Below are positions 18,880-41,226 of a stretch of DNA of 64,000 nucleotides, in pieces. A program made the position numbers and the translations under genes. Position 1 is the stretch's first letter. Each line of letters opens with the position of its first letter. This DNA comes from an uncultured Chloroflexia bacterium. GTDB lineage: Bacteria; Chloroflexota; Anaerolineae; Anaerolineales; E44-bin32. The notes under the pieces were generated by a model. It was not told where the DNA came from. It ran no database searches and saw only the letters and a program-made list of their open reading frames with translations. The DNA lies in contig CAWDZQ010000002.1 of NCBI GenBank assembly GCA_963807065.1, positions 177,260-241,259 on the forward strand, read 5' to 3'.

Positions 18880-19028
18880 ATGCTTTCAAAGACCCGGCTC
18901 GGGATGGCTGATCCCAATTCGACCCGGACAGGAAAGGAGGTTCGACCACCACAAAACGAAGATGATCAGACTTTGTTGAGGTAGTTCAACCCTTAGACGG
19001 TAGATCAGTGTATAGGTAGGAGTTGAAG

Positions 19029-20216
19029 ATGAAAAGCAAGATGTTAAAGCTCGTCACCTCGGTGATGGTCCTAGGCCTCGCCGCCGCAGCCTGCGGCCCA
19101 GCGGCCACCCCCACAACCGCCGCCACATCGGCACCAACCTCAGTTATGCCTCAGGCCACGGCGACGGAAGCCATGTCATCCACCTCAGCGCCGACCCAAG
19201 CTGCCAGCAGCGGAGGCACGATCGCCTTGCTGCTGCCGGAAACCAAGACGACCCGTTATGAGACCGCCGACAAGCCGGACTTCGAAGCCAAGTTCCAACA
19301 GCTGTGCCCGGACTGCCAGATCATCTACAGCAACGCCAACCAGGACGCCAACGCCCAGCTATCGCAAGCGGAAGCGGCCCTGACCAACGGCGCCAAGGTG
19401 TTGGTGCTCGACCCCGTGGACTCGGCCTCGGCCGGCGCCATCGCCGACAAGGCCAAGGCCCAAGGCGTGCCCGTCATCGCCTACGACCGGCTGATCCTCA
19501 ACTCGGACGGCGTCAACTACTACATCTCCTTCAACAACGTCAAAGTTGGCCAGCTTCAGGCGCAGAGCCTGGTGGACGCGCTGAACGCCATGAGCGTTTC
19601 CAAGCCGCAGATCGTGATGATCAACGGCTCTCCGACGGATAACAACGCCAGCCTGTTCAAGCAGGGGGCCCACAGCGTGTTCGACCCGCTGGTGACCTCC
19701 GGCGACCTGACCATCGCCAAGGAATACGACACGCCCGACTGGAGCCCGGATCAGGCGCAGAACGAGATGCAGCAGGCCCTGACGGCCATGAACAATCAGG
19801 TTGACGGGGTGTACGCCGCCAACGACGGCACCGCTTCCGGCGCCATCGCTGCCATGAAGGCCGCCGGCCTGAGCCCGCTGCCTCCGGTGACCGGGCAAGA
19901 CGCGGAACTGGCAGGTATCCAGCGCATCCTGACGGGTGAGCAATACATGACGGTCTACAAGGCGATCAAGCCTGAAGCCGAAGCCGCTGCCCAGCTCGCG
20001 TATGACCTGATGAAGGGCACCAGCGTGCCGGACAGCATGACCAACGGCGATACGACCAACAACGGCTCCATCGACGTTCCCTCCGTCTTGCTGACCCCGG
20101 TGGCCGTCACCAAGGACAACATCGCCGACACCGTGGTAGCCGATGGGTTCTGGACCATCGACCAGATCTGCACCGCCGACTACGCAGACGCCTGCACCGC
20201 AGCGGGTCTGAAGTAG
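19029..20216 (+). CDS. xylF: sugar (xylose-type, PBP1) ABC transporter substrate-binding lipoprotein
   Basis: Has a lipoprotein signal (LGLAAAACG) and a Thr/Ala/Pro linker, then XylF-like periplasmic-binding-fold sequence (VIAYDRLI, YISFNNVKVG, AANDGTASGAI, TGQDAE, MTVYK). I preferred the ATG at 19029 (AGGAG 7 nt upstream) over the TTG at 19023. Confidence 0.85.
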   Translation: MKSKMLKLVTSVMVLGLAAAACGPAATPTTAATSAPTSVMPQATATEAMSSTSAPTQAASSGGTIALLLPETKTTRYETADKPDFEAKFQQLCPDCQIIYSNANQDANAQLSQAEAALTNGAKVLVLDPVDSASAGAIADKAKAQGVPVIAYDRLILNSDGVNYYISFNNVKVGQLQAQSLVDALNAMSVSKPQIVMINGSPTDNNASLFKQGAHSVFDPLVTSGDLTIAKEYDTPDWSPDQAQNEMQQALTAMNNQVDGVYAANDGTASGAIAAMKAAGLSPLPPVTGQDAELAGIQRILTGEQYMTVYKAIKPEAEAAAQLAYDLMKGTSVPDSMTNGDTTNNGSIDVPSVLLTPVAVTKDNIADTVVADGFWTIDQICTADYADACTAAGLK

Positions 20217-20280
20217 GGATCGCGGCCTCCGCATCATCTCTCGCCCGAAGGCAGACGGTGATGCCGGACGACAACCCTCT

Positions 20281-20313
20281 GGAGCAGCCGCGGCCAGGTG
20301 CCGCGGCTGCTCC
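20281..20313 (+). other. intercistronic 13-bp GC hairpin between the binding-protein and ATPase genes
   Basis: ggagcagccgcgg-ccaggtg-ccgcggctgctcc. This position is typical of mRNA-stabilising or attenuating hairpins in ABC operons. Confidence 0.5.
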
Positions 20314-20328
20314 AAGTGGAGAGTGCGC

Positions 20329-21135
20329 ATGAACCAACCCAATTCAGCACCAATCCTTGAGCTCAAGGGGATCAGCAAACGCTTCGGCGCCGTCCAGGCG
20401 CTGGATTCGGTAGATTTCGAGGCCTACGCCGATCAGGTCGTGGGTTTGGTCGGCGACAACGGCGCCGGCAAGTCGACGCTGGTCAAGATCATTTCCGGGG
20501 TGTATCAGCCGGACGAAGGGACATTTTCCTTCGAGGGCAGGCCTGTGAACATCGACCAGCCGTCGGACGCCACCCGGCTCGGAATCGAGACCGTCTACCA
20601 GGATCTGGCGCTGTGTGACAACCTCGACGTGGTAGGAAATCTCTACCTAGGCCGTGAATTGCTGCGGCCGTTGATCCCCGGCTTGTTGTCCACCATGGAT
20701 GAAATCGAGATGGAGCAGACGGCTCTCAGGCTTGTCGGAGATCTGCATGTCACGCTCCCCTCTGTCCGCGAAGAGGTCGCCAGCCTCTCCGGCGGTCAGC
20801 GGCAGTCGGTGGCCGTGGCCCGGGCCGTGCTCTGGAACTCCAAGGTTTTGCTCCTTGACGAACCGACGGCCGCCCTGGGTGTGGAGCAAACCCAGCAGGT
20901 CAAGGCCCTGATCAAACGCCTGCGCCAGCGCGGCCTAGCCGTGGTGATCATCAGCCACAATTTGGCAGATATCTTCGATGTCTCCGATCGCATCATAGTG
21001 CTGCGCTTGGGCCACCGTGTGGCCACCTTTGACACCAAGGACACCAACGCCGAGTCCGTCGTTGGAGCCATCACCGGTGCCGAGTTCGGCGCACTGGACT
21101 CGGAGTCGAAGTCCAAGAGAGGCTCGAATGCTTGA
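20329..21135 (+). CDS. sugar ABC transporter ATP-binding protein (single NBD)
   Basis: Has Walker A (GDNGAGKST), the signature (LSGGQRQ) and Walker B (LLLDEPTAAL). The start is ATG 20329 or GTG 20323. Confidence 0.88.
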   Translation: MNQPNSAPILELKGISKRFGAVQALDSVDFEAYADQVVGLVGDNGAGKSTLVKIISGVYQPDEGTFSFEGRPVNIDQPSDATRLGIETVYQDLALCDNLDVVGNLYLGRELLRPLIPGLLSTMDEIEMEQTALRLVGDLHVTLPSVREEVASLSGGQRQSVAVARAVLWNSKVLLLDEPTAALGVEQTQQVKALIKRLRQRGLAVVIISHNLADIFDVSDRIIVLRLGHRVATFDTKDTNAESVVGAITGAEFGALDSESKSKRGSNA

Positions 21136-22375
21136 CCCAGCTGCAGATGGCGAGAAGGACCCGCCCTCATCCCTTGCTTCGAGGCTCCAGTATCTCATCC
21201 CCCAGCGCCTGACGGACGGTGATTTGGGCTCTCTGCCGATCCTGATCGGATTGGCCGTCATCGCCGGCATCTTTCAGATGGCCAATCATCATTTCCTTTC
21301 CCCGTTGAACCTGACCAATCTGGTGGTCCAGATCTCGGCCATCGGCACCATTTCCGTGGGGGTGGTCCTGGTGCTCCTCATCGGAGAAATCGATCTGTCG
21401 GTCGGCGCCGTCAGCGGCCTCACGGCCGGGGTGATGGCGGTGTTTGCGGTCAAATCCGGATGGCCCGGGCCGCTGGCCGTGCTGGCCGGAATCCTGGCCG
21501 GTGCCGGGATCGGGCTGCTGCAGGGAGCCTGGTTTGCCAAACTCCACGTGCCCTCCTTCGTGGTCACTCTGGCGGGATACCTGGGCTGGCAGGGCGCCCT
21601 GCTCTACGTCCTGGGAAGCACTGGCACGATCAACCTCAACGATCCCTTCATTGTCGGTTTGGCCAATACGCGCATGCCTGTCTGGTTCGGCTGGGCTTTG
21701 GCCGGCCTGCTCCTATCGGTCTTTGGCTGGCGCGTGCTCGCCGACTGGTCCCGCCGGAAGAAGCTCCATCTGCAGGTCGCCTCCGGCTGGTCCATTGCGG
21801 GGCGGATCGGCATCGTCGCCGTGGCCGCTCTGGGGTCGGTCACCCTAATGAGCGTCAACCGCAACCCGGTGAAGGGTGGCCCTGCCATCAGCGGTGTCCC
21901 ATCGGCTATCCTGGCCCTGTTAGCCTTCGTCATCTGTTTCGATTTGATCCTGCGGCGCACGCGCTTCGGCCGGGCCGTTTTTGCCGTCGGCGGGAATGTA
22001 GAAGCCGCTCGGCGAGCCGGGATCGACGTCGATCGTTTGCGCATCACCATCTTCGTGCTCTGTTCCGCCCTGGCTGCCGCCGGCGGCCTGCTGGCCGGGT
22101 CCCGCCTTCAGGCAGTCAACCAGTCATCGGGGAGCGGGGACGTCCTTCTCAATGCCATCGCGGCTGCCGTCATCGGCGGCACCAGCCTGTTCGGGGGACG
22201 CGGCAGCACGTGGGCGGCCCTGCTGGGGGCGTTGGTGATCGGCTCGATTTCCAATGGGATGGACTTGCTGGCTTTCGCGTCTTCGGTCAAGTTCATGGTG
22301 ACCGGGGCGGTGCTGCTCTTGGCCGTGACGGTGGACGCCCTTGGACACTCCCGCCGAGAACAGAGCGGGACCTAG
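21128..22375 (+). CDS. sugar ABC transporter permease (XylH/branched-chain-type)
   Basis: Polytopic membrane protein. The start at 21128 overlaps the ATPase stop. The longer ORF from 21017 is an out-of-frame overlap with the ATPase gene. Confidence 0.85.
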   Translation: MLDPAADGEKDPPSSLASRLQYLIPQRLTDGDLGSLPILIGLAVIAGIFQMANHHFLSPLNLTNLVVQISAIGTISVGVVLVLLIGEIDLSVGAVSGLTAGVMAVFAVKSGWPGPLAVLAGILAGAGIGLLQGAWFAKLHVPSFVVTLAGYLGWQGALLYVLGSTGTINLNDPFIVGLANTRMPVWFGWALAGLLLSVFGWRVLADWSRRKKLHLQVASGWSIAGRIGIVAVAALGSVTLMSVNRNPVKGGPAISGVPSAILALLAFVICFDLILRRTRFGRAVFAVGGNVEAARRAGIDVDRLRITIFVLCSALAAAGGLLAGSRLQAVNQSSGSGDVLLNAIAAAVIGGTSLFGGRGSTWAALLGALVIGSISNGMDLLAFASSVKFMVTGAVLLLAVTVDALGHSRREQSGT

Positions 22376-22447
22376 CCGGCAGCCCGTGACGGCTCTCACC
22401 ACCTCAAACTGACCTGATCAGATCCCCTGACCCCCCTTCGTCCCGAT

Positions 22448-22463
22448 TGTGAGAGTTTTCACA
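22448..22463. promoter_or_regulatory. perfect CRP/FNR-type site TGTGA-N6-TCACA at convergent gene ends
   Basis: The sequence is cgatTGTGAgagtttTCACAAac. Its right half-site contains the TGA stop (22459-22461, minus strand) of the DMT transporter gene. It lies 73 nt after the permease stop. Confidence 0.45.
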
Positions 22464-23421
22464 AACCGTTTGGCCGCGCCCCAAGACGCGGCCAAGCGAG
22501 CAGGCTCACGCCCCCCACCACAAGCACCGCGCCCGCCAGCTGCAGGCCATCCAATCTTTCTCCCAACAGCAGATAGGACAACACGGCAGCGAAGGCGACC
22601 TCCGAGTTGGAAGTAATGGAGGCCACGCTGGCCTGTGGGCGGTGCAACCCGGCCGTGTACAGGCCGAACCCGGCCACCGTCGTGAACAGGACCAATCCAG
22701 CGAAGGAAGCCAGCACCCGAGGCTGGAACGACCAGGGCATCGCCGCCTGGCCAACTTGGAACGGCAGGAGTGCCAGGGCGGCGAATCCGAAGACATACAC
22801 CAGAATGGTCCACGAACTGTAGGAACCGGCGAGCTTCTTTCCGATGAGAGAGAAGGATCCGTACAACAGCGCCGAGAGCAGCGCCACGCCAAACCCAGTC
22901 AAGGTGATGCTCATCCCCTGAAGCCGGTCCAAACGCGCAATGAGGACGACCCCAGCCAGAGCCAAAAGAATCGCCAACAACTTGAGCCGCGTCAGGGGCT
23001 CCTTCCACACAACCCAGGCGGCCAGGGTCACGAAGAGGGGGGCGAGGCATTGGATCACGGTTGAAATCGACACGCCGTTGAGCAGGATGGACGTGTTCCA
23101 CAAGACGTGGAATGCGCCTATGCCGATGGCGCCCATGCCGGCCAGCCAGGGGAGGTCTTGCCGCCGGACCCGGAGAAGCACAGGCCGAAACACGGCCAGC
23201 CCGATGAGCAGCGCACAGAAGGTGAACAAGTCACGCCAAAACGCCAGCCCCACGGCCCGCATTCGGCTTCCATCCGAGATGTAGCGGATGAAGATGCCGG
23301 AGGTCGACCAACAAGCCGTCGCCAGCAGGACCATCGCGAATCCAGGGGAATTGGAGGTCGTGACGCCGCCCTCATCGACCCGGCTCCAGGCCCGGATGGC
23401 TGCGGCCGGGTCAGCCTTCAT
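22459..23421 (-). CDS. DMT-superfamily (EamA-like) transporter
   Basis: The 320-aa ORF has 10 predicted TM helices with a duplicated EamA-like architecture. Its start overlaps the upstream stop by 1 nt (TAATG). Confidence 0.85.
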   Translation of the reverse strand: MKADPAAAIRAWSRVDEGGVTTSNSPGFAMVLLATACWSTSGIFIRYISDGSRMRAVGLAFWRDLFTFCALLIGLAVFRPVLLRVRRQDLPWLAGMGAIGIGAFHVLWNTSILLNGVSISTVIQCLAPLFVTLAAWVVWKEPLTRLKLLAILLALAGVVLIARLDRLQGMSITLTGFGVALLSALLYGSFSLIGKKLAGSYSSWTILVYVFGFAALALLPFQVGQAAMPWSFQPRVLASFAGLVLFTTVAGFGLYTAGLHRPQASVASITSNSEVAFAAVLSYLLLGERLDGLQLAGAVLVVGGVSLLAWPRLGARPNGL

Positions 23422-25019
23422 TACCGGCTTGCATTTAGTCCGGTGGCTTCAGGGGTGAGCGCCATCGCATCCACATATCGCTGCATGAAATTGGGCTCCA
23501 GGTCGAGGTCGACCTGTTGTGCTTGCTCAGCCAGAGCTTCGCCTCGGGCAAACCCATCGTCGAATAAGAACTTGGCTGCCCCGAAACCGGCCCCATTGGC
23601 GATCGTCTCCACCGTCTCCCGGCTGAAAGGCGGAATCATCCCCAGCGAGAGCACGGCATCAATCTCCACCTGCCCCCCAAAGGACCCCGTCAGGATCACC
23701 TGCCGCATGTCGCCGGGGGCCAAGTTGAGTTTCGCCATCAGGATATTGATGGCGGCGCGGATGGCAGCCTTGGCTTTTTGAAGCTCGCGGATGTCCCACT
23801 GTGTCAGATAGAGGCCTGTGCCAGGCACGAGATTGAGCCGGGCGGCGCCCGTCGAGTCCCGATCGAATCGGCCTGCCAACAAGGAAGGCTTGGCGGAAAA
23901 GCGGCCATTGGGCTCTATCAAGCCCGACCGGCGCAGTTCGTGGACCAAGCTCATCAGGCCCGATCCTGTCATCCCGATGGGCAATTCTTTGGCGATCGTG
24001 TCGAACGCCAGGTCACCGTCAGACCAGGACGCCCGGACGATCGCACCGTCCACCGCCCGACTGCCACAGGAGATGTTGACCCCTTCAAACGCCGGCCCGG
24101 CGGCCGTCGAAGCCGTCAGGATGCGTTGCCCGTCGGTCACCATCACTTCCCCATTGGTCCCCAGGTCGATGGCGGCCTTCGGCCCATCCACCTGATCGAA
24201 ACCGAACTGGACCATGCAGGCCAGTGCATCCGACCCCACGAATCCGCCGATAAGCGGGGGGAGCATCACCTGAACGCTTTCGGGAAAAATGCCTTCCATC
24301 ATGCGGCCGGCGTCCTTGATCGCATGGCGTTCAAAGGGTTGAAAGGGCATCTGGGCCAGGCTCTCCACGGGCAGACCCGTAAGCAGGTGGTGCATGGCCG
24401 TGTTGCCGACGATGGTGGCTCGTGCCACGCACTGCAGGATTTTCTCAGGCAGGTGCAAGCCATCAACCGCCTGGTTGATGGACGCCAGAGCCAGCCGCCT
24501 CAGCCGATCCCGATCTTCATCCCGGTTGATGGCGGCGTTCAGACGGGAAATCACATCGGCGCCGTACACGGTCTGCTGATTGAGACTCCCCGAGCCCGCA
24601 CAAACTTCACCGTCATCCAGCATCACCAGGAAGGCAGCCACTGTGGTCGTCCCAAGGTCGATCGCCAGGCCGATCGGGGCCTGGCTGCGTTTGTACCGGT
24701 TGCTGCTGCGGAAGATCTTGTTTGAATAGACCACGATCGGCGAAAGGACCACTCGGGTGTCCCCGGCCACCGTCGCCCTGCAGGCCAGCCGGCTGTTGAG
24801 CGCTAACTCGCCGGCTGTCAGGTGCTCGAGTTCCACCTCATCCGGCGGCGCGACGCCCTTCTCGGCCAACACCTTGCACAACCCACAGATGCCGCGTCCA
24901 GCGCAGGGCTGCTCTAAAGGAAGGCCAGTCCCGGCGATCACATCGCCGATGATTTGACCAACCTCGGCAGTGGTGGATTTTGTCGTCTCGCCGTAGATCA
25001 CGGTCACATTGGGCATCAA
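23421..25019 (-). CDS. 2Fe-2S ferredoxin domain fused to an ASKHA-fold ATPase (RACo-like / DUF4445-type)
   Basis: The N-terminus has plant-type ferredoxin Cys spacing (CAGRGICGLCKV...C). The central part has LAIDLGTTTV and DLGTNGE actin-like ATPase motifs. Confidence 0.8.
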   Translation of the reverse strand: MMPNVTVIYGETTKSTTAEVGQIIGDVIAGTGLPLEQPCAGRGICGLCKVLAEKGVAPPDEVELEHLTAGELALNSRLACRATVAGDTRVVLSPIVVYSNKIFRSSNRYKRSQAPIGLAIDLGTTTVAAFLVMLDDGEVCAGSGSLNQQTVYGADVISRLNAAINRDEDRDRLRRLALASINQAVDGLHLPEKILQCVARATIVGNTAMHHLLTGLPVESLAQMPFQPFERHAIKDAGRMMEGIFPESVQVMLPPLIGGFVGSDALACMVQFGFDQVDGPKAAIDLGTNGEVMVTDGQRILTASTAAGPAFEGVNISCGSRAVDGAIVRASWSDGDLAFDTIAKELPIGMTGSGLMSLVHELRRSGLIEPNGRFSAKPSLLAGRFDRDSTGAARLNLVPGTGLYLTQWDIRELQKAKAAIRAAINILMAKLNLAPGDMRQVILTGSFGGQVEIDAVLSLGMIPPFSRETVETIANGAGFGAAKFLFDDGFARGEALAEQAQQVDLDLEPNFMQRYVDAMALTPEATGLNASR

Positions 25020-25020
25020 C

Positions 25021-25209
25021 TCAGGCGCCTCCCTGGCGCGCCTCGTTCCCCGCCTTCAGTAACATCCATGAGCCCTGTAGAACCCCACGACCCGAGATGA
25101 GCGCCCTTCGAAACTTGAATGTGCAACCCATGCGTGTTGGTCCCCTGCTTGGGCAGGGCGATGCCCGCTCATCGAATGGGCACAAGCCGGGGAGGTCATC
25201 AGCGATCAA
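25021..25209 (-). CDS. possible 62-aa Cys-containing small protein filling the gap between two operon genes
   Basis: A TTG start overlaps the upstream TGA (TTGA), and the stop is 1 nt before the downstream ATG (25019). I have no homology argument. It could also be a frame-shifted tail of the upstream Fe-S protein. Confidence 0.25.
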   Translation of the reverse strand: MIADDLPGLCPFDERASPCPSRGPTRMGCTFKFRRALISGRGVLQGSWMLLKAGNEARQGGA

Positions 25210-25757
25210 TGGGCAAGCTCGTCCCCTGCCGGCCCTGGGATCAACGCTCTGATTTCAAACAAGTTGCCAAGGTGGGCGTCTTCCAGCAATACGGGGCAAT
25301 CCTCCGGCACACGTCGGTGAGCCACGAGCTTGAGAGCAAATATGAAGCAGGTGGGCTCTCCACACTTCTGGCAGTTGGACCGAGGCAGCAGCTTGTAGAC
25401 GTCCGTCGGCACCGGACGCTGGTGGGTTTCAAAGTCGGGGGTGATGTCCGCCCGCCGTGACCAGGTCCAATTCACGAGTTCGACAAGCTCGTCCAGTTGG
25501 GTGATGGCCTGTGCTCGATCTTCAACATTGGCCACCGCGATCTGCGTGGCGTGGAACGAGACGGGCAGGCCGCCCATCTTGCAGGTTAGGGCTTCGGCAC
25601 GCGGATGATAAACCGCTCCCACCAGGCAGGCGTTCAGCAGAGGCAGCACCCCGCGAATATCCGCCTCCAAGTGAGCGATCGCCGCGAAGCTCTCAGTGCC
25701 CGGTTCGCAGGGCGGGGTAAACACTTCGAGTGTGTAATCCTGGATCAGCCCCGCCAT
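25206..25757 (-). CDS. small protein with an RnfB/CdhD-type 4Fe-4S 'FeS' domain
   Basis: Has the LLPRSNCQKCGEPTCFIFALKLV motif. The start at 25757 has GGAGGAGAAA directly upstream. Confidence 0.7.
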   Translation of the reverse strand: MAGLIQDYTLEVFTPPCEPGTESFAAIAHLEADIRGVLPLLNACLVGAVYHPRAEALTCKMGGLPVSFHATQIAVANVEDRAQAITQLDELVELVNWTWSRRADITPDFETHQRPVPTDVYKLLPRSNCQKCGEPTCFIFALKLVAHRRVPEDCPVLLEDAHLGNLFEIRALIPGPAGDELAH

Positions 25758-25815
25758 TTTCTCCTCCGGGGGCACGCGCTGCCCCCTGCCAGGGACGTCG
25801 GGTTCGCGTTGCGCC

Positions 25816-27339
25816 TTAGCCCAACTTACCGACCGCTCCTTCCACGGCGGCCAATATGTCACCGGACTTGACCAGGTCATGCATTCGGTTGTGATCGGGG
25901 TACAGCGGCCGATCCACGTCGAGGTGCTTCACATGCTCGCGGATCACTTGACGCGCCGCCTGAATGCCCGTTCCCGGTGTGAAATCGCGGAAATCAAGAG
26001 CTTGAGCCGCAGCCATCAGTTCGATGCCCACCACCCCGTACGCATTGTCCAGTATCTGGTCGTTCTTCAGAGCGGTGTTCATCCCCATGGACACAAAGTC
26101 TTCCTGGTCTGCCGCGGCCGGAATGGATTGAATGCTGGCCGGCGCGGACAGGATGCGCTGCTCGACGATCAAATGGTCCGCCGTGTACTGGGACAACATC
26201 ATCCCGGAATAGAAGCCGGGTTCATGGGCCAGGAAGTCTGGAAGCCCCCCCGAAAGCGCTGGATTCGTCAGCCGGTTCATCCGCCGCTCTGACATCACGG
26301 AAACCATGGTGACGGCGGCCCCGGCCATGTCCATAGGCAGGGACACGGGCGAACCCTGGAAGTTGGCCCCCGTCAGAGTGAGCTTTGTCTCGGGAACAAA
26401 CACCGGGTTGTCGCCGACGCCGTTCAGTTCGATCTCCACCTGGGAGCGGGCGTAGGCCAAAGCGTCGCGGGCCGCCCCGATCACCTGGGGCGTCGAACGC
26501 ATCGAGTAGGCATCCTGAACCTTGGTCTTCATCTTCCCGGTCATCAGGTCCGAGCCATCGATCAACTTCATAATGTTCTGGGCGGAGACAATCGCCCCCC
26601 GGAACCCCCGCAGCTCGTGCAGCTTGGTCGTGTACGGCTTCAAGTTTCCGAGGAGGGCTTCGATCGACATCGCCGCCGCGATTTCGGCATGCTTGAGCCA
26701 GCGGGTCATATCGAAGATGTGCACGCCGGACAAGGCCGTCAAGACGTTGGACCCATTGATGGCTGCCAGGCCGTCGCGCGCATGCAGGCCGGGGACGGTC
26801 ACCCCGGCGCGTCGCATCGCTTCTTCGCCCGGAAGGCGTTCCCCCTTATAGAACGCCTCACCCTCCCCCATCAGCAGCAGGGCCGCCTGGGCCATCGGCG
26901 CCAGATCCCCGCTGGCGCCCACCGACCCCTTCCGGCAAACCACCGGTGTAACGCCCTTATTCAACATGTCGACCATCGCCAGAGTGATCTCGGGCCGGCA
27001 GCCCGAGTTCCCGTGGGCATGCACATTGATGCGGCTGGTCAGCGCAGCTCGGACATATTCAGCGGGCAGCGGGTCACCGATGCCAGCGGCGTGGTTATAA
27101 ACCAGGAATTTCTGAAACTCCTTGACCTGATCGTCGTCGAGGACCACTTCCGAGAACTCGCCGATCCCGGTGTTGGTGCCGTACATGATCTCTTTCTTGA
27201 CCAGTTTGTCCTCGACCATGGCCCGGCAAACTCGGATCCGCTCCAGCGCCTCGGCGGATAATGCTACTTGTTGCTGGTCCCGGGCTATCGCCACCAAGGT
27301 TTCAATTGTGAGGGATGAGCCGTCGAGTGTGAGGGTCAT
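25816..27339 (-). CDS. MIO-dependent aromatic amino acid/histidine ammonia-lyase family enzyme
   Basis: The 507-aa ORF has the MIO-forming triad in GSVGASGDLAPMA, plus GTNTGIG and NGSN motifs. Substrate specificity is not assignable by eye. Confidence 0.9.
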   Translation of the reverse strand: MTLTLDGSSLTIETLVAIARDQQQVALSAEALERIRVCRAMVEDKLVKKEIMYGTNTGIGEFSEVVLDDDQVKEFQKFLVYNHAAGIGDPLPAEYVRAALTSRINVHAHGNSGCRPEITLAMVDMLNKGVTPVVCRKGSVGASGDLAPMAQAALLLMGEGEAFYKGERLPGEEAMRRAGVTVPGLHARDGLAAINGSNVLTALSGVHIFDMTRWLKHAEIAAAMSIEALLGNLKPYTTKLHELRGFRGAIVSAQNIMKLIDGSDLMTGKMKTKVQDAYSMRSTPQVIGAARDALAYARSQVEIELNGVGDNPVFVPETKLTLTGANFQGSPVSLPMDMAGAAVTMVSVMSERRMNRLTNPALSGGLPDFLAHEPGFYSGMMLSQYTADHLIVEQRILSAPASIQSIPAAADQEDFVSMGMNTALKNDQILDNAYGVVGIELMAAAQALDFRDFTPGTGIQAARQVIREHVKHLDVDRPLYPDHNRMHDLVKSGDILAAVEGAVGKLG

Positions 27340-27746
27340 GGGCGGTCTTCTCCAGAATGGGGTGAATAGCTTGGCTGAGGGTGACGCATCCCGGTCCGAG
27401 CATTATGCCGCGATCTGGCTGATTCGTGGACGGCTCGAGGGCGTTCAGCTCCGATCATTGACAGGTCTTCATTTAGAGGCACCCCCAATCCATGCTCGGG
27501 GCCTCCTGCCTATTATTCTAAGGGTACGGAAGGCGAATGCAATCCGGGGCTTGCCGCCCATAAGCTTGCGTTGTTGGCCACGGTCCGGCGACCCTTGAGT
27601 AAGTCAGTTGGGAGCTTCGCAAGCTTCACCTCAGCCCTGCAGGCAATCATACCCCCCGCATGTCTCTCCTATGGCATGGTGCATCCCGCCAAACCACCCG
27701 TGATGAAATGGCCCTGCAGATCGTGTCTTGACGACCAGAAGAGGTG

Positions 27747-29240
27747 CTAGCTTGAACCGAGCCCGTGCAATGAGGGTTTGAGCGAGGGGTAGAGTTGGCG
27801 GTATATCGGATAAAGCGCATCGTAGTCGGCAGCAGCGGAGCCCGGTGTCGTCCGCCCAGTAATATGAACGACCTGCAGGCAAACGCTGCGCACATTGGGA
27901 AAAACGCCAGTGCCCGTGGCCGCCAAGAGGGCCGCACCGAATGCCGCACCCTCTCTAGAGTTGACCGTAACAAGCTCTGCTTGGAGAACATCGGCGAGGA
28001 TCTGTCGCCATAATGGGCTCTTTGCGCCGCCCCCTGTGACACGAACTTGGGTGATTTCTCCCAATCCAGCAGCTTCCATGAGTTCGAAGCTTTCTCTTAA
28101 GCCAAATGCAACGCCTTCCAATACCGATCGTGTCAAATGGGGCAAGGCATGCCGAACCGTCAAGCCGACGAACGCTCCGCGGGCCAGAGGATCCGAATGC
28201 GGAGTACGTTCACCGGTCAAGTAAGGCAGAAACAGCAGGCCATCGCTTCCTGGGGGTATCTTGCTCACATCCTCCAGCAGGGAATCGAAATCAACACCGG
28301 GAGCAAATGTGTCGCGATGCCAACGCAGGCTCCCACCTGCGGAGAGCATGACGCCCATCAGATGCCACTTTCCGGGGACGGCGTGACAGAACGCGTGCAG
28401 GCGCCCCGCCGGTTCGATGGTGGGTTGATCCGTGGTGGCGAAAATCACCCCAGATGTCCCCAAGCTGAGTGAGACGATCCCTTCTTCAACCGCGCCCGTG
28501 CCGACCGCAGCAGCGGCCTGGTCCCCTGCTCCCCCCACGATCGGCGTCCCCTCTTCCAATCCCGTAGCTTTGGCGGCTTCGGCACTCAACTTGCCTGCCA
28601 CTCTTGGGCCTTCATATGTCGTGGGCAGGTACCGACGATCAATCTCAAGAGCGTCAAGTACCTCGAGGGACCAATCACGGCCGCGTATGTCAAAGAGCAG
28701 CGTGCCAGACCCCCCGGCGCGGTCCATGGCGAATTCACCGCTAAGCCGATAGCGGACGTAGTCCTTGGGCAGCAAGATGTGGGCGACCTTCCGATAGAGA
28801 TCGGGTTCTTCCTGCTGAACCCACAGGATTTTGGGCGCGGTGAAACCCGTGAGAGCGTCGTTGCCGGTGACCTGGATCAAATGATCCTTGCCAAGCCGGG
28901 CGCGGATATCATCGCATTGTTTTCCGGTACGTTGATCATTCCAGAGCAAGGCCGGTCGGATCATTTTCCCGTCTTTGTCCAGGAGAACCAACCCGTGCAT
29001 CTGACCGGTGAGCCCAATGCCTTCCACGTCGCTGGCCGGCACCCCTGAGGATTGCATGACGGCGCGGATGCTGGTCACCGCAGCATCCCACCACAGTTGG
29101 GGATCTTGCTCGCTCCACAAGGGACGCGGAGTGTCAAAGGTGTATTCCGACGAAGCGACGGCCACGACGCGGCCCTTGTCATCAATCAAGAGAGCCTTCG
29201 TCGCCGTGGTCGAGGCATCGATGCCAAGGCAGTAGCTCAT
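27747..29240 (-). CDS. xylB: xylulokinase (FGGY family)
   Basis: The 497-aa ORF has LGIDASTTATKALL, GAGDQAAAAVG and TGGGAKSPLWRQILADV motifs. Confidence 0.88.
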   Translation of the reverse strand: MSYCLGIDASTTATKALLIDDKGRVVAVASSEYTFDTPRPLWSEQDPQLWWDAAVTSIRAVMQSSGVPASDVEGIGLTGQMHGLVLLDKDGKMIRPALLWNDQRTGKQCDDIRARLGKDHLIQVTGNDALTGFTAPKILWVQQEEPDLYRKVAHILLPKDYVRYRLSGEFAMDRAGGSGTLLFDIRGRDWSLEVLDALEIDRRYLPTTYEGPRVAGKLSAEAAKATGLEEGTPIVGGAGDQAAAAVGTGAVEEGIVSLSLGTSGVIFATTDQPTIEPAGRLHAFCHAVPGKWHLMGVMLSAGGSLRWHRDTFAPGVDFDSLLEDVSKIPPGSDGLLFLPYLTGERTPHSDPLARGAFVGLTVRHALPHLTRSVLEGVAFGLRESFELMEAAGLGEITQVRVTGGGAKSPLWRQILADVLQAELVTVNSREGAAFGAALLAATGTGVFPNVRSVCLQVVHITGRTTPGSAAADYDALYPIYRQLYPSLKPSLHGLGSS

Positions 29241-29246
29241 CTTGAC

Positions 29247-30134
29247 CTATCCCGCTTTGATGACTGAGAGGACTTGGACGAGGTCATCGGACCACTCAAT
29301 TCCTTCGTGCAGGTCCCAGACCTCGATATGCTCGATACTGCCTCCCGGCAACAGCGATGTGATTGGTGCGAGCGTCTCCAGCTCCAAGAACCGCGGGTCA
29401 CAATAGCACTCGCTGGAGCTTCCGCGGTCAAAATACTCGGCGCCCTGAAAATAGCTTGCACGTTTGACAAAGAGTGACCCATTGAGCCAGTACGCCAGCC
29501 ACCCCTCAGGGTTCGGGAAACCGATCTTGAGCTTGCCCCCCTTCATTTTGGCTCGAACAAGGACAATCTCATTTCCCCAGCTGATGTAATCCGAGTTGAT
29601 GTCTGTATAGGACCAGAGTGTGATGGTGCGGTTGGGCTGGATGGGACTCCCCCAAATGCCGTTTGTACACTGGGGCAGGATGGCCACGCCCCCCGGCCTC
29701 AGCTGGGTGATGGCCCACGGTGACAGGGTTTGTTCCGTATCTCCCCTGTTCGTCAATGTGTGTCTGACCTCAACGGAAGCGCGATGGCTGGCCAAGCGAA
29801 CTTCGAGCACCTTTTCAAGCATCGTCCTCGGATCCGCTGGTTGGGTGAGGCGGATGCCATCACCAAGAGACTTCACATCAATGGGGGAGTCATCTGGTAA
29901 ATAGGTTATCGGGGGATTCTCGGGGGCATGCCATAGGCGATGGCCGCCGTAGAAGTGGAAGGGAGCCCCTCCGGGATGTTCCAATATGGCCCCCGGGAGC
30001 ACGGCAAGAATATTATCACCCCTGCTTGACTTCAACGACAGGATGCGCGGGCCAACCGAAATGGTCGCCAATATTGAAAGGTGATCACTGGCGATCTCAG
30101 CACATTCAATTCCCTGAAATTCAATCGTCTGCAT
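29247..30134 (-). CDS. galactose-mutarotase-fold / aldose-epimerase-like protein, uncharacterised
   Basis: The start at 30134 is MQTIEF. Has a GGHRLWHAPE motif and a beta-sandwich-like sequence. It sits between xylA and xylB. Confidence 0.6.
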   Translation of the reverse strand: MQTIEFQGIECAEIASDHLSILATISVGPRILSLKSSRGDNILAVLPGAILEHPGGAPFHFYGGHRLWHAPENPPITYLPDDSPIDVKSLGDGIRLTQPADPRTMLEKVLEVRLASHRASVEVRHTLTNRGDTEQTLSPWAITQLRPGGVAILPQCTNGIWGSPIQPNRTITLWSYTDINSDYISWGNEIVLVRAKMKGGKLKIGFPNPEGWLAYWLNGSLFVKRASYFQGAEYFDRGSSSECYCDPRFLELETLAPITSLLPGGSIEHIEVWDLHEGIEWSDDLVQVLSVIKAG

Positions 30135-30162
30135 ATCTCGCCGCGTCCGATTGAGCGGACTT

Positions 30163-31332
30163 CTAGCGTACGCCCATGATGAGTTCAACCACCAATTGAT
30201 CAAGGCGCTCATATTTCAATCCACGCTGTCCAAGTTTCTCCCGATCGAAGGTCAAGGCTTTTAGACTTGATGCTTTCTCGGGTGAATACTTGCCCTTGAA
30301 CGGATCCATCTCGCCATCGTCGGCGGTTATCTCTGCCAGGAGGGCCTGGATTTCGGGGTCATGGCCGAATTGGGCCGCCTTTTGCTTCAGGATCAGGTAG
30401 GTGCGCATGCAGCCCCGGGCGAAGTCCTTTACACCCTCGTAATCCTCGGTACGGTAGGCATGTGCATCAAAGTGACGGCTGCCGGAATAGCCAGAGTCCT
30501 CCAGCAGTTTGACAAGGAAGAAAGCGCTCTTGAGATTGACCGCACCGAAACGAAAATCCTGGTCAAAGCGGCCAAAGGCCTGGTCGTTCAGATCGATATG
30601 GAAAAGCTTTTCCGTTTCAAGGGCTTGGGCCACCGCGTGTACGAAGTTAAGTCCGGCCATGTGTTCGTGAGCGACTTCCGGGTTTACTCCGACCATTTCA
30701 GGGTGATCAAGGGTTTCGATGAAGGCCAGCATGTGCCCTGTCGTCGCGTTGTACATGTCACCGCGCGGCTCATTGGGTTTTGCCTCGAGGGCAAACTTCA
30801 GCTGGTAGTCTCTATCCAGGACGTATTCACAGAGGAAGTTCATCGCCTCACGTGTGCGCTTGATAGCCACAACAGGATCTTTGCCCGCATCGGTTTCCGT
30901 CCCTTCGCGCCCCCCCCAAAAGACATAGACCTTTGCACCCAATTCCACACCGAGGTCGATCGCATGCATCGTTTTCTGGAGCGCGTACGCCCGCACACGC
31001 GGGTTGTTTGCAGTGAAGGCACCATCCTTAAAGACCGGATCCCCGAAGAGGTTGGTGGTTGCCATAGGGACGCACAGGCCGGTTGCCTGCAGAGCCCGCT
31101 GAAACTCCGCCACAATTCTATGGCGATCAGAAGGACTGGCATCGATCGGGACCAGGTCATTGTCGTGGAGATTGACACCATAGGCCCCGACGTCGGCAAG
31201 CAGGTGTACAAGCTCAACTGGAGATAGCGAAGAGCGCACAGGTCCGCCAAATGGGTCGCGTCCGATGTTCCCGACGGTCCACAAGCCGAATGTGAACTTA
31301 TGCTCGGGCTTGGGCTGAAAAGGATCAGGCAT
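30163..31332 (-). CDS. xylA: xylose isomerase (short, actinobacterial-type class I)
   Basis: The start at 31332 has AGGAGA upstream. Has [16 protein letters not shown]-like, WGGREG and PKPNEPRGD-like motifs. The product is 389 aa. Confidence 0.92.
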
Positions 31333-31391
31333 CAAATTTCTCCTATACGCCGGTCGGGGCGTGGCAGCATGTTCATGTCCTACTTCTCCGC

Positions 31392-33714
31392 CTAGGTCCC
31401 GACTTCTACCGGGCATTCGAACAGCCGCTTGTTGATGACTTCGGCCTGCCGGCCCACGACTTCGAATGAGCCTTGTAAGCGAATGTCCTCGGACGAGCTG
31501 CCCACCATAACGATCATCCGACCGGGCTCAAGCACCAGTTCCAGGTCCTGGTTGTAGAATGCCAGCAGGTTTACGGGCAAACTGAATGTGACCTTCTTTC
31601 GTTCGCCGGATTGGAGTTCGATTCGCGTGTAGCCGACGAGTTGCTTCACCGGCCGCGGTGAACTCGCGAACATGTCCCGAGCATAGAGCTGGACAACCTC
31701 CTCACCGGGGAGCGATCCTGTGTTGGTCAATTCAACCGCCACGGCAACGCATTCACCACAGGACACTTGAGGCTTGCCCACCGATAGATTGCTGTATTCG
31801 AATGTCGTATAACTCAGGCCGTGGCCGAAGGGATAGAGCGGGGCGGTCTTCTCTGAGACATAATCGCCGTACCAGTGGGATTTCATGGCCGAGGGTTGGT
31901 GATTGTAGAAAATCGGCAGCTGTCCGACATGGCGCGGGAATGTTACCGGGATCTTGCCCCCAGGATTGACGTCACCAAAAAGGACGTCGGCCACTGCGCC
32001 CCCCCCTTCTTCACCGGGAATCCAGGCTTCGAGAATGGCGTCGGCCATCTCATCAAGCCAAGGAATGGCATACGGGCGCCCGTTGATCAAGACAGCCGCC
32101 ACCGGTTTGCCAGTGGCCAGCACCGCCCTTGCCAGATCTTCCTGCACGCCGGGCAGACGAAGGTCAGCGCTATCGCGAGTTTCCCCAGTAGTGCATTCAG
32201 GCATCAGCCCGGATCGATCGCCAAGAACGAGAATCACCGCGTCAGCTCGATCGGCGGCCGCAAGTGCGCTATCAAATCCACCCTTGTCTTCATCCAGATT
32301 GTCGCAACCTTTGGCATACAGCACTTTCGTCTTCGGCGAGACGGCCGCTTTGATGTTTTCAAGCACCGTGGTCACCTGTATTTCATGTCGAGCAATTGCA
32401 TTGGCATCGACTTCTCACAAATGAAGAATTAGGCGGAGACTGGTAAATCATCAGCTCTTTGGTGGCCTCATAGGAATAATCGCCCAGCAGACCACGGGCA
32501 TGATCTGCGTTGGGGCCAAGAACAGCCACAGTGCCGATGTCCTTCTCGAGTGGCAGGAGCCCATTGTTCTTGAGGAGAACGATGCTCTTACGGGCGATCT
32601 CTCGCGCCAAGCTACGCTGTGCGCCGGTCTCATATACCTCGAGCACACGCCCTTCATCCACGAAAGGATTAACGAACAGACCAAGGTCAAGTTTCTTCTG
32701 CAGGTGTCGGCGCACGGCCGTATCAACGGTTCCGATATCAAGGTCGCCAGCATCCAGCGCGGCCATGAGCGGCTCGGCATAGCAAACCGCTGTCGGCAAC
32801 TCCACGTCGATACCTGCGTCGAGCGCAAGACATGCCGCCGTGGACTTATCCACAGCCAGGTTGTGAAAGTTGTGGATCATAAGAACGGCTTCGTAGTCCG
32901 AGACCACCAGGCCGTCGAATCCGAGTTGGTCTCGTAGGAGTTCGGTCAAAATGCGGCGCGACGCAGCGACCAACTCGCCATCCACTTCGGGATAGGCGTT
33001 CATGATGCTGGCCAAGCCAGCCTCCCCTATGGCGGCTTGGAATGGGGCGAGATACACCTCGAATAACTCATGCCATCCCACATGGACGGGCCCGCAGTTG
33101 AGACCGCCCTGGGATAGGCCGTGTCCGATGAAATGTTTCCCAGTCGCCATCACGCCATCTGTCAGGCTGTCTCCCTGCAACCCGCGGACGTAGGCCACGC
33201 CAAACTGACTGACCAACATTGGGTCTTCGCCAAAGGTCTCTTCTATGCGTCCCCACCGTGGGTCGCGGGCGACATCCAGCACCGGTGCCAGCGCCTGGCG
33301 CGCCCCGATGGCCAGCATCTGTTGGCGGATGGCGCTTGTCATTTGTTGGGCCAATTCGGGCTGAAATGTGGCGGCCAAGCCGAGCATCTGCGGGTAGCAT
33401 GTTCCTCCAAGCACCACGGTCCCGCAACAACATTCCTCGTGAAGAATTGCCGGTATGCCTAAACGTGTGCGTTCCACAAGGAATCTCTGGATCTGATTGC
33501 CGGCTATGGCTGCCGACAGCGGATCTAGAGTTGAAGCGCCGGCGACCCGAGTGATCTGGCCCATGCCGAGGCTGAGTTTCGACTGGATCTTTTCCGGATC
33601 CAGCTTCGCATCCTTTTGCAGCTCATACATCCAGCAGGAGCCCAGTTGAGCCAATTTCTCATCCAAGGTCATCTGTGTTATGAGTTTCTCGATGGAGGGC
33701 AAGATGGATGTCAT
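31392..33714 (-). pseudogene. GH3 beta-glucosidase (BglX-like), split by one frameshift
   Basis: ORF 32383..33714 is the N-terminal (beta/alpha)8 domain (GRIEETFGEDP, KHFIGHG, VVSDY). ORF 31392..32375 is the C-terminal alpha/beta plus FnIII-like part (ILVLGD, INGRPY, EAWIPGEEGG). The frames can only be joined within 32385-32414. Confidence 0.85.
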
Positions 33715-33832
33715 GCAGCCTCTCTGTCCGGACCTTCATGCCTATTTTGGGCATCGAAGTTTCTGGAACGAACCAGGTCCCCTATGAGCCAGACTTTGAA
33801 CCAATGATCATCGAAATACGGTAGAGATCGCA

Positions 33833-35201
<1,369 letters not shown>

Positions 35202-37668: not shown

Positions 37669-37690
37669 AGTGCCTCGATGTCTGGCTTCT

Positions 37691-38537
37691 CTATTCTTTA
37701 ATGGCGCCCAGGGCAATGCCGCTGACAATGTAACGCGAGAAGATAGCGTAGATGATGATGATCGGGACAACCGTAATGGCAAGTCCCAAGTAGATCGCAC
37801 CATACTCTGTACGATACACGTCACCACGCATGGTTTGCACAAGCATCGGCAGGGTGTACTTCTTTATAGATGAAATCAGGATGAACGGGGTGAAAAAGTT
37901 GTTCCATGATGCGACGAACGCAAAAATACCCATGGTGGCCGCACCTGGAACCGCAAGAGGCATGATAATCCTGTGAAAGATCCCCAGTTCACCGGCGCCA
38001 TCGATTTTGGCAGCATCGATCAGATCTTGGACCACCATTGACTTCGAAGTACTGCTTGCCAAAGAACACCGCCGAGGCATTGGCAATCAGGGGCAAGATA
38101 AGCGAAGCATAATTGTCTGTCAATCCCAGGGTGGACATGAATTGATAGAAACCCACGATAGAGAGCTGCATGGGGATCATGACCAGCACGATGATGAAGT
38201 TGGAGAAGAGCTTTTTCCCCTTGAAGTCGTAGACAACCAGGCCATAGGCGGTCATCATCGAGAAATAGACTGTGACCAGCGTCGAGGAGACCGCCAGGTA
38301 TAAGCTGTTGGCGAAGCCTCTCGGCATGTCCAAACCTCTGCCGATCAACAGTCCGTAGTTCTCGATAACATGCGTGCTCGGCAGCAGGCTAATCCCCTGT
38401 TGAATCTCCGTTGTTGAACGGGTTGCGTTCACGATCAGCAACCAGATTGGCAAGATGGTGATGACCAACAGGAGAATCAGGAACGTGTAGACTAAAATGC
38501 GGAGGACACCCGTGCCAAATCTGTATTGGCTGATCAT
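37691..38537 (-). pseudogene. CUT1-family sugar ABC permease (MalG-like), split by one frameshift
   Basis: ORF 37989..38537 is the N-terminal TM helices. ORF 37691..38086 carries the EAA-loop region (LIDAAKIDGAGELGIFHRIIMP). The join is near 38030-38045. Confidence 0.85.
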
Positions 38538-39492: not shown

Positions 39493-39611
39493 CTCGCCCT
39501 CGAGTTTCTCCGTCATCGAAAACAAGTCGCCCGATCAGCCAGTTTGAACGATCGGGGTGGGTCAGTGTATTCTTGGGAATACACTGGCCCACCCTCCCTT
39601 TCAGATTGCGG

Positions 39612-41045: not shown

Positions 41046-41226
41046 GTGTCTTCTCCTTCGTATGCTTTAGGCGGAGAGAAATCTCCGTTCGACTGTGCAG
41101 GTCTTCCTTCGTCCGCTCATGGCAGAAGTGAAGACCTGTGCATTTCTTAGCAGGGCCTCAGAATCACCTCCCTTTCTTTAGGTGCTCTTTGCATTGCACA
41201 AAAGTTTCGAGCCAGCAACGCCCGAG

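Follow-up and report, generated by a model that had tools for sequence, protein, structure and literature searches.

Independent gene modules brought together in one lineage probably account for a string of lyase, Fe-S protein, RACo-like activase and EamA transporter genes in an Anaerolineales genome

The gene string at positions 22459 to 27339 on the minus strand of the window (the whole stretch of 64 kb that was analysed) consists of four genes arranged head to tail, encoding a lyase, an Fe-S protein, a RACo-like ATPase and an EamA transporter, and is likely to be a mosaic of independent modules specific to one lineage rather than a single pathway. Elsewhere, the usual neighbourhood differs from each of these genes to the next, which favours the fallback reading of the original prediction, namely that unrelated functions share the string. 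Its leading idea, an uncharacterised pathway that couples the lyase to export and to a transfer of low-potential electrons driven by ATP, is unsupported, as one close relative (L176) carries the lyase without the Fe-S gene and another (L091) carries the RACo-EamA pair within an MttB cluster. The neighbourhood survey that had been suggested indicated that the linkage is essentially unique, if not to this one genome then to a narrow clade: lyase, Fe-S and RACo genes occur together only in the window's organism, in L006 and in L173, in the last with an MTTB gene in between.

The string had been described as five packed genes with gaps or overlaps of 1-60 nt, of which four were retained, with domain assignments borne out by profile matches, while the fifth was not. 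The quoted letters are in place (TAATG at 23421, TTGA at 25206-25209 and TGA/TTG/ATG at 25023-25016), but two starts were revised. The start of the Fe-S gene (25206..25757) is most likely ATG 25757, to judge from a preceding GGAGGAG ribosome-binding site and from the length of the resulting protein (183 aa), since homologues are all about 178-187 aa long and one of 183 aa (P0001) is 100% identical; with this start the gene does not overlap the lyase gene but is separated from it by a gap of 58 nt. The RACo-like gene (23421..25016) was likewise real, its start being moved to ATG 25016 (531 aa, as in the homologue P0121), which leaves a non-coding spacer of about 186-189 nt (25017..25205) after the Fe-S gene. 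The start of the EamA gene (22459..23421, 320 aa) overlaps the RACo-like stop by 1 nt. The rejected member, a 62-aa ORF with a TTG start (25021-25209), is unlikely to be a gene: it matches nothing in Pfam or NCBIfam, its GC content by codon position is 0.59/0.60/0.67 versus about 0.64/0.44/0.76 in the four real genes, and tblastn gave no match in relatives beyond the same organism. The spacer that holds it matches no Rfam family, contains neither a terminator nor a promoter and has an ordinary folding energy (z = +0.94); its counterpart in L006 is about 690 nt long, cannot be aligned with it and contains the remnant of a WXG100-like repeat gene. The spacers on either side of the Fe-S gene are conserved only at the ribosome-binding sites. 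A search for terminators and promoters between the four genes found none, so co-transcription is possible; same-strand packing of this kind is normal in bacterial genomes and by itself not beyond chance.

The lyase (25816..27339, minus strand, 507 aa) is a MIO-dependent enzyme of the HutH type. It scores 539 bits against PF00221, with GSVGASGD at residues 138-145, passes the cut-off of the NCBIfam histidine ammonia-lyase (HAL) model PRK09367 (540, cut-off 524) and falls slightly below that of the hutH equivalog TIGR01225 (515, cut-off 539). Its best solved relatives are HALs (7tqr, 304 bits; Pseudomonas putida 1gkm, 294 bits). It shares fold, length and the Ala-Ser-Gly triad, at the identical positions 142-144 (A142-S143-G144), with P. 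putida HAL (1B8F/1GKM) and the Thermoplasma-type HAL 7TQR, and the counterparts of P. putida Tyr53, His83, Asn195, Gln277, Tyr280, Arg283, Phe329 and Glu414 are conserved. The active-site comparison that had been proposed for guessing the substrate thus found every HAL catalytic and substrate residue present, as in a canonical HAL. The enzyme differs from these HALs in that its matches reach only about 300 bits and in a few residues (Asn for the Ser before His83, Gln for His330 and Phe for the His of the QEDH motif), and unlike hutH it is not beside hutU or hutI in the loci examined. It would deaminate L-histidine to urocanate with no redox partner. The score just under the equivalog cut-off and the absence of hut genes near the window lyase count against a HAL role for this module of the mosaic. 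Among orthologues with 82-85% identity (L170, L171, L172 and L174/L175), tblastn found no Fe-S or RACo gene beside the lyase, and the called neighbours, which include no hut genes, are unrelated and differ from locus to locus. The lyase is a very conserved, usually stand-alone Anaerolineae gene.

The Fe-S protein carries PF04060 at its C-terminus (E = 2e-11). This [4Fe-4S] domain belongs to the type known from the CFeSP large subunit (AcsC/CdhE, 2YCL) and RnfB, with the pattern CxxCxxxxC...C (Cys129, 132, 137 and 154, all conserved in the alignment) and 34% identity to 2ycl_A over 53 residues. In an AlphaFold model (pLDDT 84.6) the predicted C-terminal domain matches 2ycl_A and the N-terminal domain weakly matches TBP half-folds. 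In contrast to the CFeSP large subunit, where the [4Fe-4S] domain is N-terminal, it is C-terminal in this protein of 183 aa, which has no TIM-barrel, B12 domain, membrane anchor or extra ferredoxin domains; its N-terminal part is an alpha/beta domain of TBP-like fold in which a further cysteine (Cys17) is conserved. The family is Chloroflexota-wide: a search of the genome collection gave at least 592 loci, with only Chloroflexota among the matches listed. In the best 80 of these loci, a lyase was found only in L010 (which shares a contig with L001), a RACo-like gene in one, and a distant one (30% identity), and EamA in none; 63 of the 80 have an ArsR, thioredoxin, VKOR-Grx, TauE, Acr3, DGC or OsmC gene at a distance of up to 5 kb. 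The usual setting of the family is thus one of ArsR and thiol-redox genes, of arsenic or stress type. In one narrow clade alone, a diverged copy would have become established directly behind the lyase, where its product may act as an electron carrier or a redox/metal sensor unrelated to the lyase chemistry.

The RACo-like protein is a RACo/RamA-like ATP-dependent corrinoid reductive activase with the three-part architecture of RACo from Carboxydothermus hydrogenoformans (3ZYY/4C1N), RamA/RamQ and RamA-like Fer2+DUF4445 proteins, namely an N-terminal [2Fe-2S] ferredoxin (Cys38, 44, 47 and 79), a middle domain and an ASKHA ATPase domain (Fer2 23.8 bits, Raco_middle 128, RACo_C_ter 197; 176 bits to the solved RACo 3zyy), although it scores far under the cut-offs of NCBIfam AcsV and RamA. 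We surveyed 80 metagenome loci centred on this gene and found the lyase and Fe-S genes only in L090, a locus of the same organism as the window. Orthologues (60-83% identity) usually lie behind DUF1638, which is directly upstream in 32 of the 44 loci with enough upstream flank, in CODH/ACS (Wood-Ljungdahl) or MTTB methyltransferase clusters, with CODH, ACS, AcsE-like and MTTB genes nearby. The neighbouring EamA protein has two stretches of PF00892 (134 bits), and an EamA gene immediately follows the RACo orthologue in L091 and L166 (78-79% identity), as it does in L146 and L092, a pairing that sets the window activase apart from RACo and RamA. The RACo-like and EamA genes are a conserved pair of corrinoid-dependent methyl-transfer systems of the MttB-family or Wood-Ljungdahl type. 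The window differs from RACo and RamA loci also in that no client corrinoid protein was found in its 64 kb: in agreement with the original prediction, neither tblastn with the MTTB, MTHFR and DUF1638 proteins of relatives nor a Pfam sweep of most larger ORFs found an MTTB, corrinoid-binding protein or methyltransferase gene. An activase gene with no nearby client can be explained because relatives hold MTTB exactly at this place and because genes for activases of this kind often lie apart from those of the client proteins (PMC5764234, PMC8604678). For instance, Fer2+DUF4445 proteins with DUF1638, a pairing that matches the orthologue neighbourhoods found here, provide methionine synthase with reactivated B12 and show no linkage to their clients (PMC5764234), and in Eubacterium limosum RamQ, the corrinoid protein and MttB homologues lie in separate clusters (PMC8604678). 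The activase would spend ATP on reducing corrinoid proteins in the inactive Co(II) state whose genes lie in other parts of the genome.

The gene orders of close relatives suggest that the window arose by deletion, which brought RACo-EamA, the rest of an MttB module, next to lyase-FeS. L173 has the order lyase-FeS-MTTB(-)-RACo(+), with a RACo 83% identical to that of the window; L001 and L008 have lyase-FeS-WXG-MTTB-MTTB-GntR-MTHFR; L176/L177 have the lyase (86% identity) and the same synteny with MTTB genes. L091 has MTTB-DUF1638-MTTB-hydantoinase-like-GntR-RACo-EamA-hydantoinase-like, followed by the ABC transporter and DEAD helicase of the window (86-90% identity), and, at similar divergence, has neither lyase nor Fe-S gene within 8 kb of RACo-EamA. 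In the window the genes of this sugar-type ABC transporter (binding protein, ATPase and permease; 19023..22375, plus strand) converge on the EamA gene, and they are 86-90% identical to and syntenic with those that follow RACo-EamA in L091 and RACo in L006, which makes RACo-EamA-ABC a conserved block. Relatives thus have at this position what is known from MttB-superfamily quaternary-amine clusters (MtgB, MtpB, MtcB and MtyB with MtqC, MtqA and RamQ), namely MTTB paralogues, GntR, MTHFR, DUF1638, RACo and a transporter, whereas the window retains just the activase and the transporter. In the window's lineage the genes dividing lyase-FeS from RACo, MTTB among them, would have been deleted, making the modules adjacent, and co-transcription of the two, if it occurs, would be incidental. 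Upstream of the lyase, where relatives have MFS_2 and a 378-aa acetyltransferase, lies a sugar-utilisation island (27747..42303, minus strand) with GH3, GH1, GH94, ABC transporter and LacI genes by Pfam and a lower GC content (GC 0.53-0.59; GC3 0.62-0.67 versus 0.72-0.85 elsewhere); a remnant of the acetyltransferase is found at 42624-43171 on the plus strand.

Some observations count against the mosaic, for instance the absence of a terminator or promoter within the string and of a client corrinoid protein in the window; the tight lyase-FeS spacer, despite the divergence of the Fe-S protein, could reflect selection for co-expression, and lyase-FeS may have a functional tie with its MttB-system neighbours. 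The tight spacer connects to an unlikely explanation, in which lyase and Fe-S gene are a genuine two-gene unit of an Anaerolineales clade, RACo-EamA being unrelated, and the diverged Fe-S paralogue serves as redox/metal-sensing partner, regulator or chaperone of the deamination of histidine or the true substrate. The pair is kept in at least six distinct relatives, the Fe-S gene always lying 55-69 nt downstream of the lyase with its own ribosome-binding site (window, L001, L006, L008, L173 and L178), and the linked copies form one monophyletic, fast-evolving clade that averages 55% identity to the general family, compared with 73% within that family; the MarR winged-helix domain fused to one family member (P0383) and the JGI label metal-binding regulator hint at sensing. 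However, L176/L177 keep the lyase and the flanking synteny and have no Fe-S gene or remnant, the Fe-S gene never adjoins lyase orthologues at 82-85% identity, and MIO lyases are not known to require Fe-S partners. Among carriers the Fe-S protein evolves much faster than the lyase (56-73% versus 86-89% identity), suggesting relaxed constraint, and all carriers are close relatives, so that the adjacency may be simple inheritance.

The possible tie with the MttB system underlies a considerably less probable explanation, in which lyase, Fe-S protein, MttB-family methyltransferases, RACo and EamA make up an island for the catabolism of an N-methylated derivative of histidine or a related quaternary amine: corrinoid-dependent demethylation, maintained by RACo, would yield a primary amine for deamination by the lyase, and EamA would move substrate or product. 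MttB-system components are the next genes in every lyase-FeS genome with enough flank and lie 0.1-2 kb from lyase(-FeS) in all such genomes with a lyase of at least 86% identity, in three arrangements (L001/L008/L176, L173 and window/L006), and the equivalents of the imidazole-binding His83 and Glu414 are kept. On the other hand, the MTTB genes run towards lyase-FeS instead of in the same direction, all MTTB genes are missing from the window although its lyase is intact, neighbours of lyase orthologues outside the clade are unrelated, none of the papers listed by a literature search on the MttB superfamily and histidine describes, to judge from title and abstract, an MttB substrate derived from histidine, and the carriers are close relatives, which makes shared synteny weak evidence. 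Finally, delivery of low-potential electrons by the RACo-like ATPase via the Fe-S protein to the lyase or its product (e.g. in a reaction of the reductive aminomutase or urocanate type), EamA serving as exporter, is already disfavoured and very improbable: adjacency on one strand with no predicted terminator and an Fe-S domain of the corrinoid/Fe-S protein type are set against a three-way linkage confined to three organisms, an FeS-RACo spacer that is variable and holds gene debris in L006, where RACo is split over two reading frames, RACo orthologues that belong to corrinoid systems and a canonical HAL active site.

The mosaic of independent modules, which we prefer, would represent ordinary genome mosaicism, not a new redox-coupled lyase pathway. 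Still of interest are the pairing of lyase and Fe-S gene, which is particular to this clade, and the Fe-S family itself, which is uncharacterised.

The string under study was found to consist of four minus-strand genes. Each belongs or is related to a known type of gene, although the architecture of the Fe-S protein is unstudied. They are an MIO ammonia-lyase gene (25816-27339, minus strand; 507 aa, PF00221 539 bits), a gene for an Fe-S protein that carries PF04060 at its C-terminus (FeS, minus strand, probable start ATG 25757 behind GGAGGAG; 183 aa, identical to the database protein P0001), a gene for a RACo-like protein (minus strand, start ATG 25016; 531 aa, equal to the database protein P0121, with Fer2, Raco_middle and RACo_C_ter domains) and an EamA/DMT transporter gene (22459-23421, minus strand; PF00892 133.8 bits in two stretches). 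With two EamA repeats and a length near 300 aa, the transporter is as expected of the DMT family. These four genes and their domains agree with the original prediction, in which three details called for correction: the start of FeS, the start of the RACo-like gene (ATG 25016), and a 62-aa ORF with a TTG start in the spacer between FeS and RACo. With its start at ATG 25757, FeS does not overlap the lyase gene but lies 58 nt from it, and the Fe-S homologues are all of 178-187 aa, in agreement with the 183-aa gene model. The 62-aa ORF lacks a family match, a counterpart in relatives and a coding GC pattern (0.59/0.60/0.67 by codon position versus about 0.64/0.44/0.76 in real genes), and we treat it as presumably spurious. 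A regulatory RNA or riboswitch in the same 186-nt spacer was considered and rejected (no Rfam match there, fold z-score +0.94); an Rfam E-value scan of 22000-28000 gave a single chance match, inside the lyase gene. Neither a terminator nor a sigma-70-like promoter was found in the spacers of the string, and across relatives the ribosome-binding sites alone align in the lyase-FeS and FeS-RACo spacers.

Surveys were centred on the Fe-S, RACo and lyase genes separately. Among the 80 best of at least 592 loci centred on the Fe-S gene, the lyase was found only in L010 (on the same contig as L001, one of the homologous loci discussed below), a distant RACo-like gene (30% identical) in one and EamA in none. 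The 80 metagenome loci centred on RACo contained lyase and FeS only in L090, which is the window's own organism (100% identity). Centred on the lyase, five loci of 82-85% identity (L170, L171, L172 and L174/L175) have unrelated and variable neighbours, and no FeS or RACo genes were detected there by tblastn. The combination of lyase, FeS, RACo and DMT genes was thus not encountered in independent genomes; the linkage occurs in one clade and is variable there, which speaks against the redox-coupled pathway proposed from the gene order. Since the co-occurrence in independent lineages that defines a functional operon was looked for and not found, we regard the string as a case of ordinary genome mosaicism, in line with the fallback already named in the original prediction, i.e. 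unrelated functions sharing one string.

The modules approach each other only in relatives with a lyase at least 86% identical, and there the arrangements differ. The order is acetyltransferase-MFS_2, lyase, 633 nt without a trace of FeS, WXG100-like, MTTB(-) MTTB(-) GntR(-) in L176/L177, lyase-FeS-WXG-like in L178, lyase-FeS-WXG-like-MTTB(-)-MTTB(-)-GntR(-)-MTHFR(-) in L001 and L008, and lyase-FeS-MTTB(-)-RACo(+) in L173, with a RACo 83% identical to that of the window. The MTTB adjoining lyase(-FeS) is orthologous in L173, L008, L176 and L001 (86-92% identity). In L006, lyase-FeS is followed by about 690 nt with the remnant of a WXG-like repeat gene, by RACo in two frames and, with no EamA, by the window's ABC transporter. 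L091 has MTTB-DUF1638-MTTB-hydantoinase-like-GntR-RACo-EamA-hydantoinase-like, and then a permease-ATPase-binding protein set and a DEAD helicase that are 86-90% identical to those at 17.3-22.4 kb of the window; no lyase or FeS was found within 8 kb in this locus. EamA also directly follows the RACo orthologue in L166 (78-79% identity in L091 and L166), L146 and L092, so that RACo-EamA forms a separate module. The simplest reading of these arrangements is a history of deletions, with RACo-EamA-ABC as a conserved block belonging with MttB-type methyltransferase genes, lyase(-FeS) as a second block, and a loss of the genes between the two in the window's lineage.

Several side observations were made in the same loci. 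The protein encoded behind lyase(-FeS) has a WXG100 domain and a variable internal repeat (L001 10795-11802, L176 9158-9823, L178 7894-8532), and a fragment of the repeat is left in the FeS-RACo spacer of L006 (10867-11040). The two-frame breaks in the MTTB of L001 (11944-13390) and the RACo of L006 (11257-12845) are either pseudogenes or frameshift errors of the MAGs; an in-frame pyrrolysine codon was rejected as the cause of the split MTTB, of which the two parts lie in different frames. On the other side of the lyase, the window contains a sugar-utilisation block (27747-42303; xylulokinase, xylose isomerase, GH3, GH1, GH94, an ABC transporter and LacI) with lower GC (0.53-0.59) and a GC3 of 0.62-0.67 versus 0.72-0.85 elsewhere. 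This block looks like an inserted island and occupies the position of MFS_2 and a 378-aa acetyltransferase in relatives, of which only a remnant of the acetyltransferase survives in the window (42624-43171, plus strand). Its GH3 gene (31392-33714) is split into ORFs in different frames (31392-32375 and 32383-33714) and its GH1 gene into overlapping ORFs (33833-34729 and 34686-35198), as a result of either pseudogene formation or assembly frameshifts. A few kb past the lyase, the window (11858-15892, minus strand) and L171 (12871-15524) have a glutamate dehydrogenase gene followed by one for a PPDK_N-domain protein, and glutamate dehydrogenase lies at the edge of L006 (19598-20564). The genes between lyase and glutamate dehydrogenase vary by genome, so the region behaves as a variable hotspot while the backbone is conserved.

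By its domain make-up (Fer2 23.8 bits, cut-off 21; Raco_middle 128.2; RACo_C_ter 197.3) the RACo-like protein is probably a relative of the RACo/RamA-type corrinoid reductive activases, and would as such use ATP to reduce a Co(II) corrinoid protein. Its score against the solved RACo structure 3zyy is 176 bits, and its ferredoxin domain has Cys38, 44, 47 and 79. The NCBIfam scores are under the cut-offs for AcsV (256.7 versus 800) and RamA (116.6 versus 500), and it is therefore a relative and not a named equivalog. Anaerolineae have a large group of orthologues (60-83% identity); in the 80-locus survey DUF1638 was directly upstream in 32 of the 44 loci with enough upstream flank, and other neighbours were an AcsE-like pterin-binding protein, CO dehydrogenase and acetyl-CoA synthase and, in other loci such as L091 and L173, MTTB. 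As originally stated, no corrinoid protein or methyltransferase was found in the window by tblastn with MTTB, MTHFR and DUF1638 of relatives and by a Pfam sweep that covered most larger ORFs; nor did tblastn (E up to 10) return remnants of DUF1638, MTTB, GntR or hydantoinase-like genes. In line with the neighbourhoods of the orthologues, methionine synthase depends for its B12 reactivation on Fer2+DUF4445 proteins and DUF1638, whose genes lie apart from those of the clients (PMC5764234), and in Eubacterium limosum the RamQ activase, corrinoid protein and MttB homologues are found in separate clusters (PMC8604678). In view of these cases, a RACo-like gene without an adjacent client is not odd.

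The lyase is most similar to histidine ammonia-lyases (HAL) among solved structures (HAL 7tqr 304 bits and Pseudomonas putida HAL 1gkm 294, against 277 for a tyrosine aminomutase and 187 for ergothionase). The Ala-Ser-Gly triad from which the MIO cofactor would form autocatalytically is present: GSVGASGD forms residues 138-145, and A142-S143-G144 align to the triad of P. putida HAL (phmmer, 1gkm). The same alignment showed that the substrate and catalytic residues Tyr53, His83, Asn195, Gln277, Tyr280, Arg283, Phe329 and Glu414 of that enzyme are all kept (as Y53, H83, N195, Q275, Y278, R281, F327 and E413). The score exceeded the cut-off for the NCBIfam HAL subfamily NF006871 (540.4, cut-off 524) and stayed under that for the hutH equivalog TIGR01225 (515.2, cut-off 539.15), and the lyase differs from canonical HAL in Asn82 for Ser, Gln for His330 and Phe for the His of the QEDH motif. 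Ergothionase identity was rejected given the MIO triad and the score with 6s7j (187 bits versus about 300 for HALs). Neighbouring genes of the Hut pathway (hutU, hutI, hutG) are supportive of HutH identity and not strictly defining. The Pfam sweep of most larger window ORFs returned no urocanase or imidazolonepropionase family, and neither of the two occurs among the called genes of L001, L006, L008, L170-L172 and L174-L178; the loci of 82-85% identity have no hut genes among their called neighbours. We read the lyase as a probable histidine ammonia-lyase-type enzyme (EC 4.3.1.3) and infer L-histidine as the substrate, which would be turned into urocanate and ammonia. In Anaerolineae the family (P0241-P0360) comprises over 120 database clusters of 82-90% identity, all of about 507 aa; the enzyme is unusually conserved and, in the loci examined, unlinked to hut genes. 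A literature search on HAL in Anaerolineae found nothing relevant.

The Fe-S protein has a PF04060 domain (43.8 bits) with Cys129, 132, 137 and 154 invariant in the family alignment A1, as is Cys17. In the predicted structure, which is of good quality (pLDDT 84.6), the C-terminal domain is similar to the [4Fe-4S] domain in the CFeSP large subunit (2ycl_A). The N-terminal domain forms a TBP-like alpha/beta half-fold, for which no solved structure gave a significant match. The protein shares the four-cysteine cluster of PF04060 with AcsC/CdhE but lacks their TIM-barrel and B12-binding domains, and shares the PF04060 domain with RnfB but, with 183 aa, lacks its membrane anchor and poly-ferredoxin; its NCBIfam scores are below the cut-offs for both CdhE (50 versus 306) and RnfB (19.5 versus 68.7). 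The family was found at at least 592 loci in a one-genome-per-species collection, with every listed record from Chloroflexota and most from Anaerolineae; at E <= 1e-30, clustering at 50% identity gives 135 representatives, and proteins P0361-P0510 belong to it. Of the 80 best loci (L010-L089), 63 have an ArsR-type regulator, small thioredoxin, VKOR-glutaredoxin, TauE, Acr3-type SBF, DGC or OsmC within 5 kb, mostly upstream on the same strand (ArsR being scattered within the 5 kb), and a second paralogue often comes next after the Fe-S gene. One member, P0383, occurs as a fusion with a MarR winged-helix domain. Given these neighbourhoods and this fusion, the family may act as a redox or metal(loid) sensor. 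Variants of 265-306 aa with an extra N-terminal alpha/beta domain were also found, and a literature search on PF04060 found nothing relevant. The window itself has an operon of the arsenic-resistance type (ArsR (HTH_5), ArsC-like LMWPc and an Acr3-type SBF permease; 45654-47588, minus strand), which is syntenic with L001, where it lies about 8 kb upstream of lyase-FeS.

The FeS copies linked to the lyase are monophyletic and evolve fast, with 56-73% identity to each other and about 55% to the general family, while the lyases are 86-89% identical. Within this clade FeS always lies 55-69 nt downstream of the lyase. The pairing could be plain inheritance with relaxed constraint, a view supported by the FeS-less L176, or a real two-gene unit, which we consider unlikely. 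A more far-reaching reading, in which the lyase-linked FeS is a neofunctionalised branch of the possible sensors and the HAL-type lyase is under redox or metal control, possibly in an MttB island degrading a methylated histidine-like compound, has in our view a rather slim chance of being correct. A speculative island of MttB genes and lyase for methylated histidine would fit the recurrence of MttB genes near the lyase in this clade; it is nevertheless very improbable, since the MTTB genes are convergent with lyase(-FeS), the window lost all of them and kept the lyase, and a literature search found no histidine-derived MttB substrate. The electron-transfer coupling of lyase, FeS and ATPase that was originally suggested is scarcely credible. 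What looks like a coupling between an MIO lyase and an ATP-driven reductase arose by chance through gene loss, and so is not one to be pursued as a pathway hypothesis.

The mosaic nature of the string was revealed by centring surveys on each gene separately, and it serves as a caution that even genes packed tightly on one strand, with an overlap of 1 nt, may form a mosaic. As candidate new biochemistry the string carries little weight, with a modest residual interest in the Fe-S family and the clade-specific pairing with the lyase. Two by-products possibly deserve attention: an uncharacterised Chloroflexota-wide Fe-S family that tracks ArsR and thiol-redox genes, and the HAL-type lyase of Anaerolineae, which is unusually conserved and not linked to hut genes in the loci examined.
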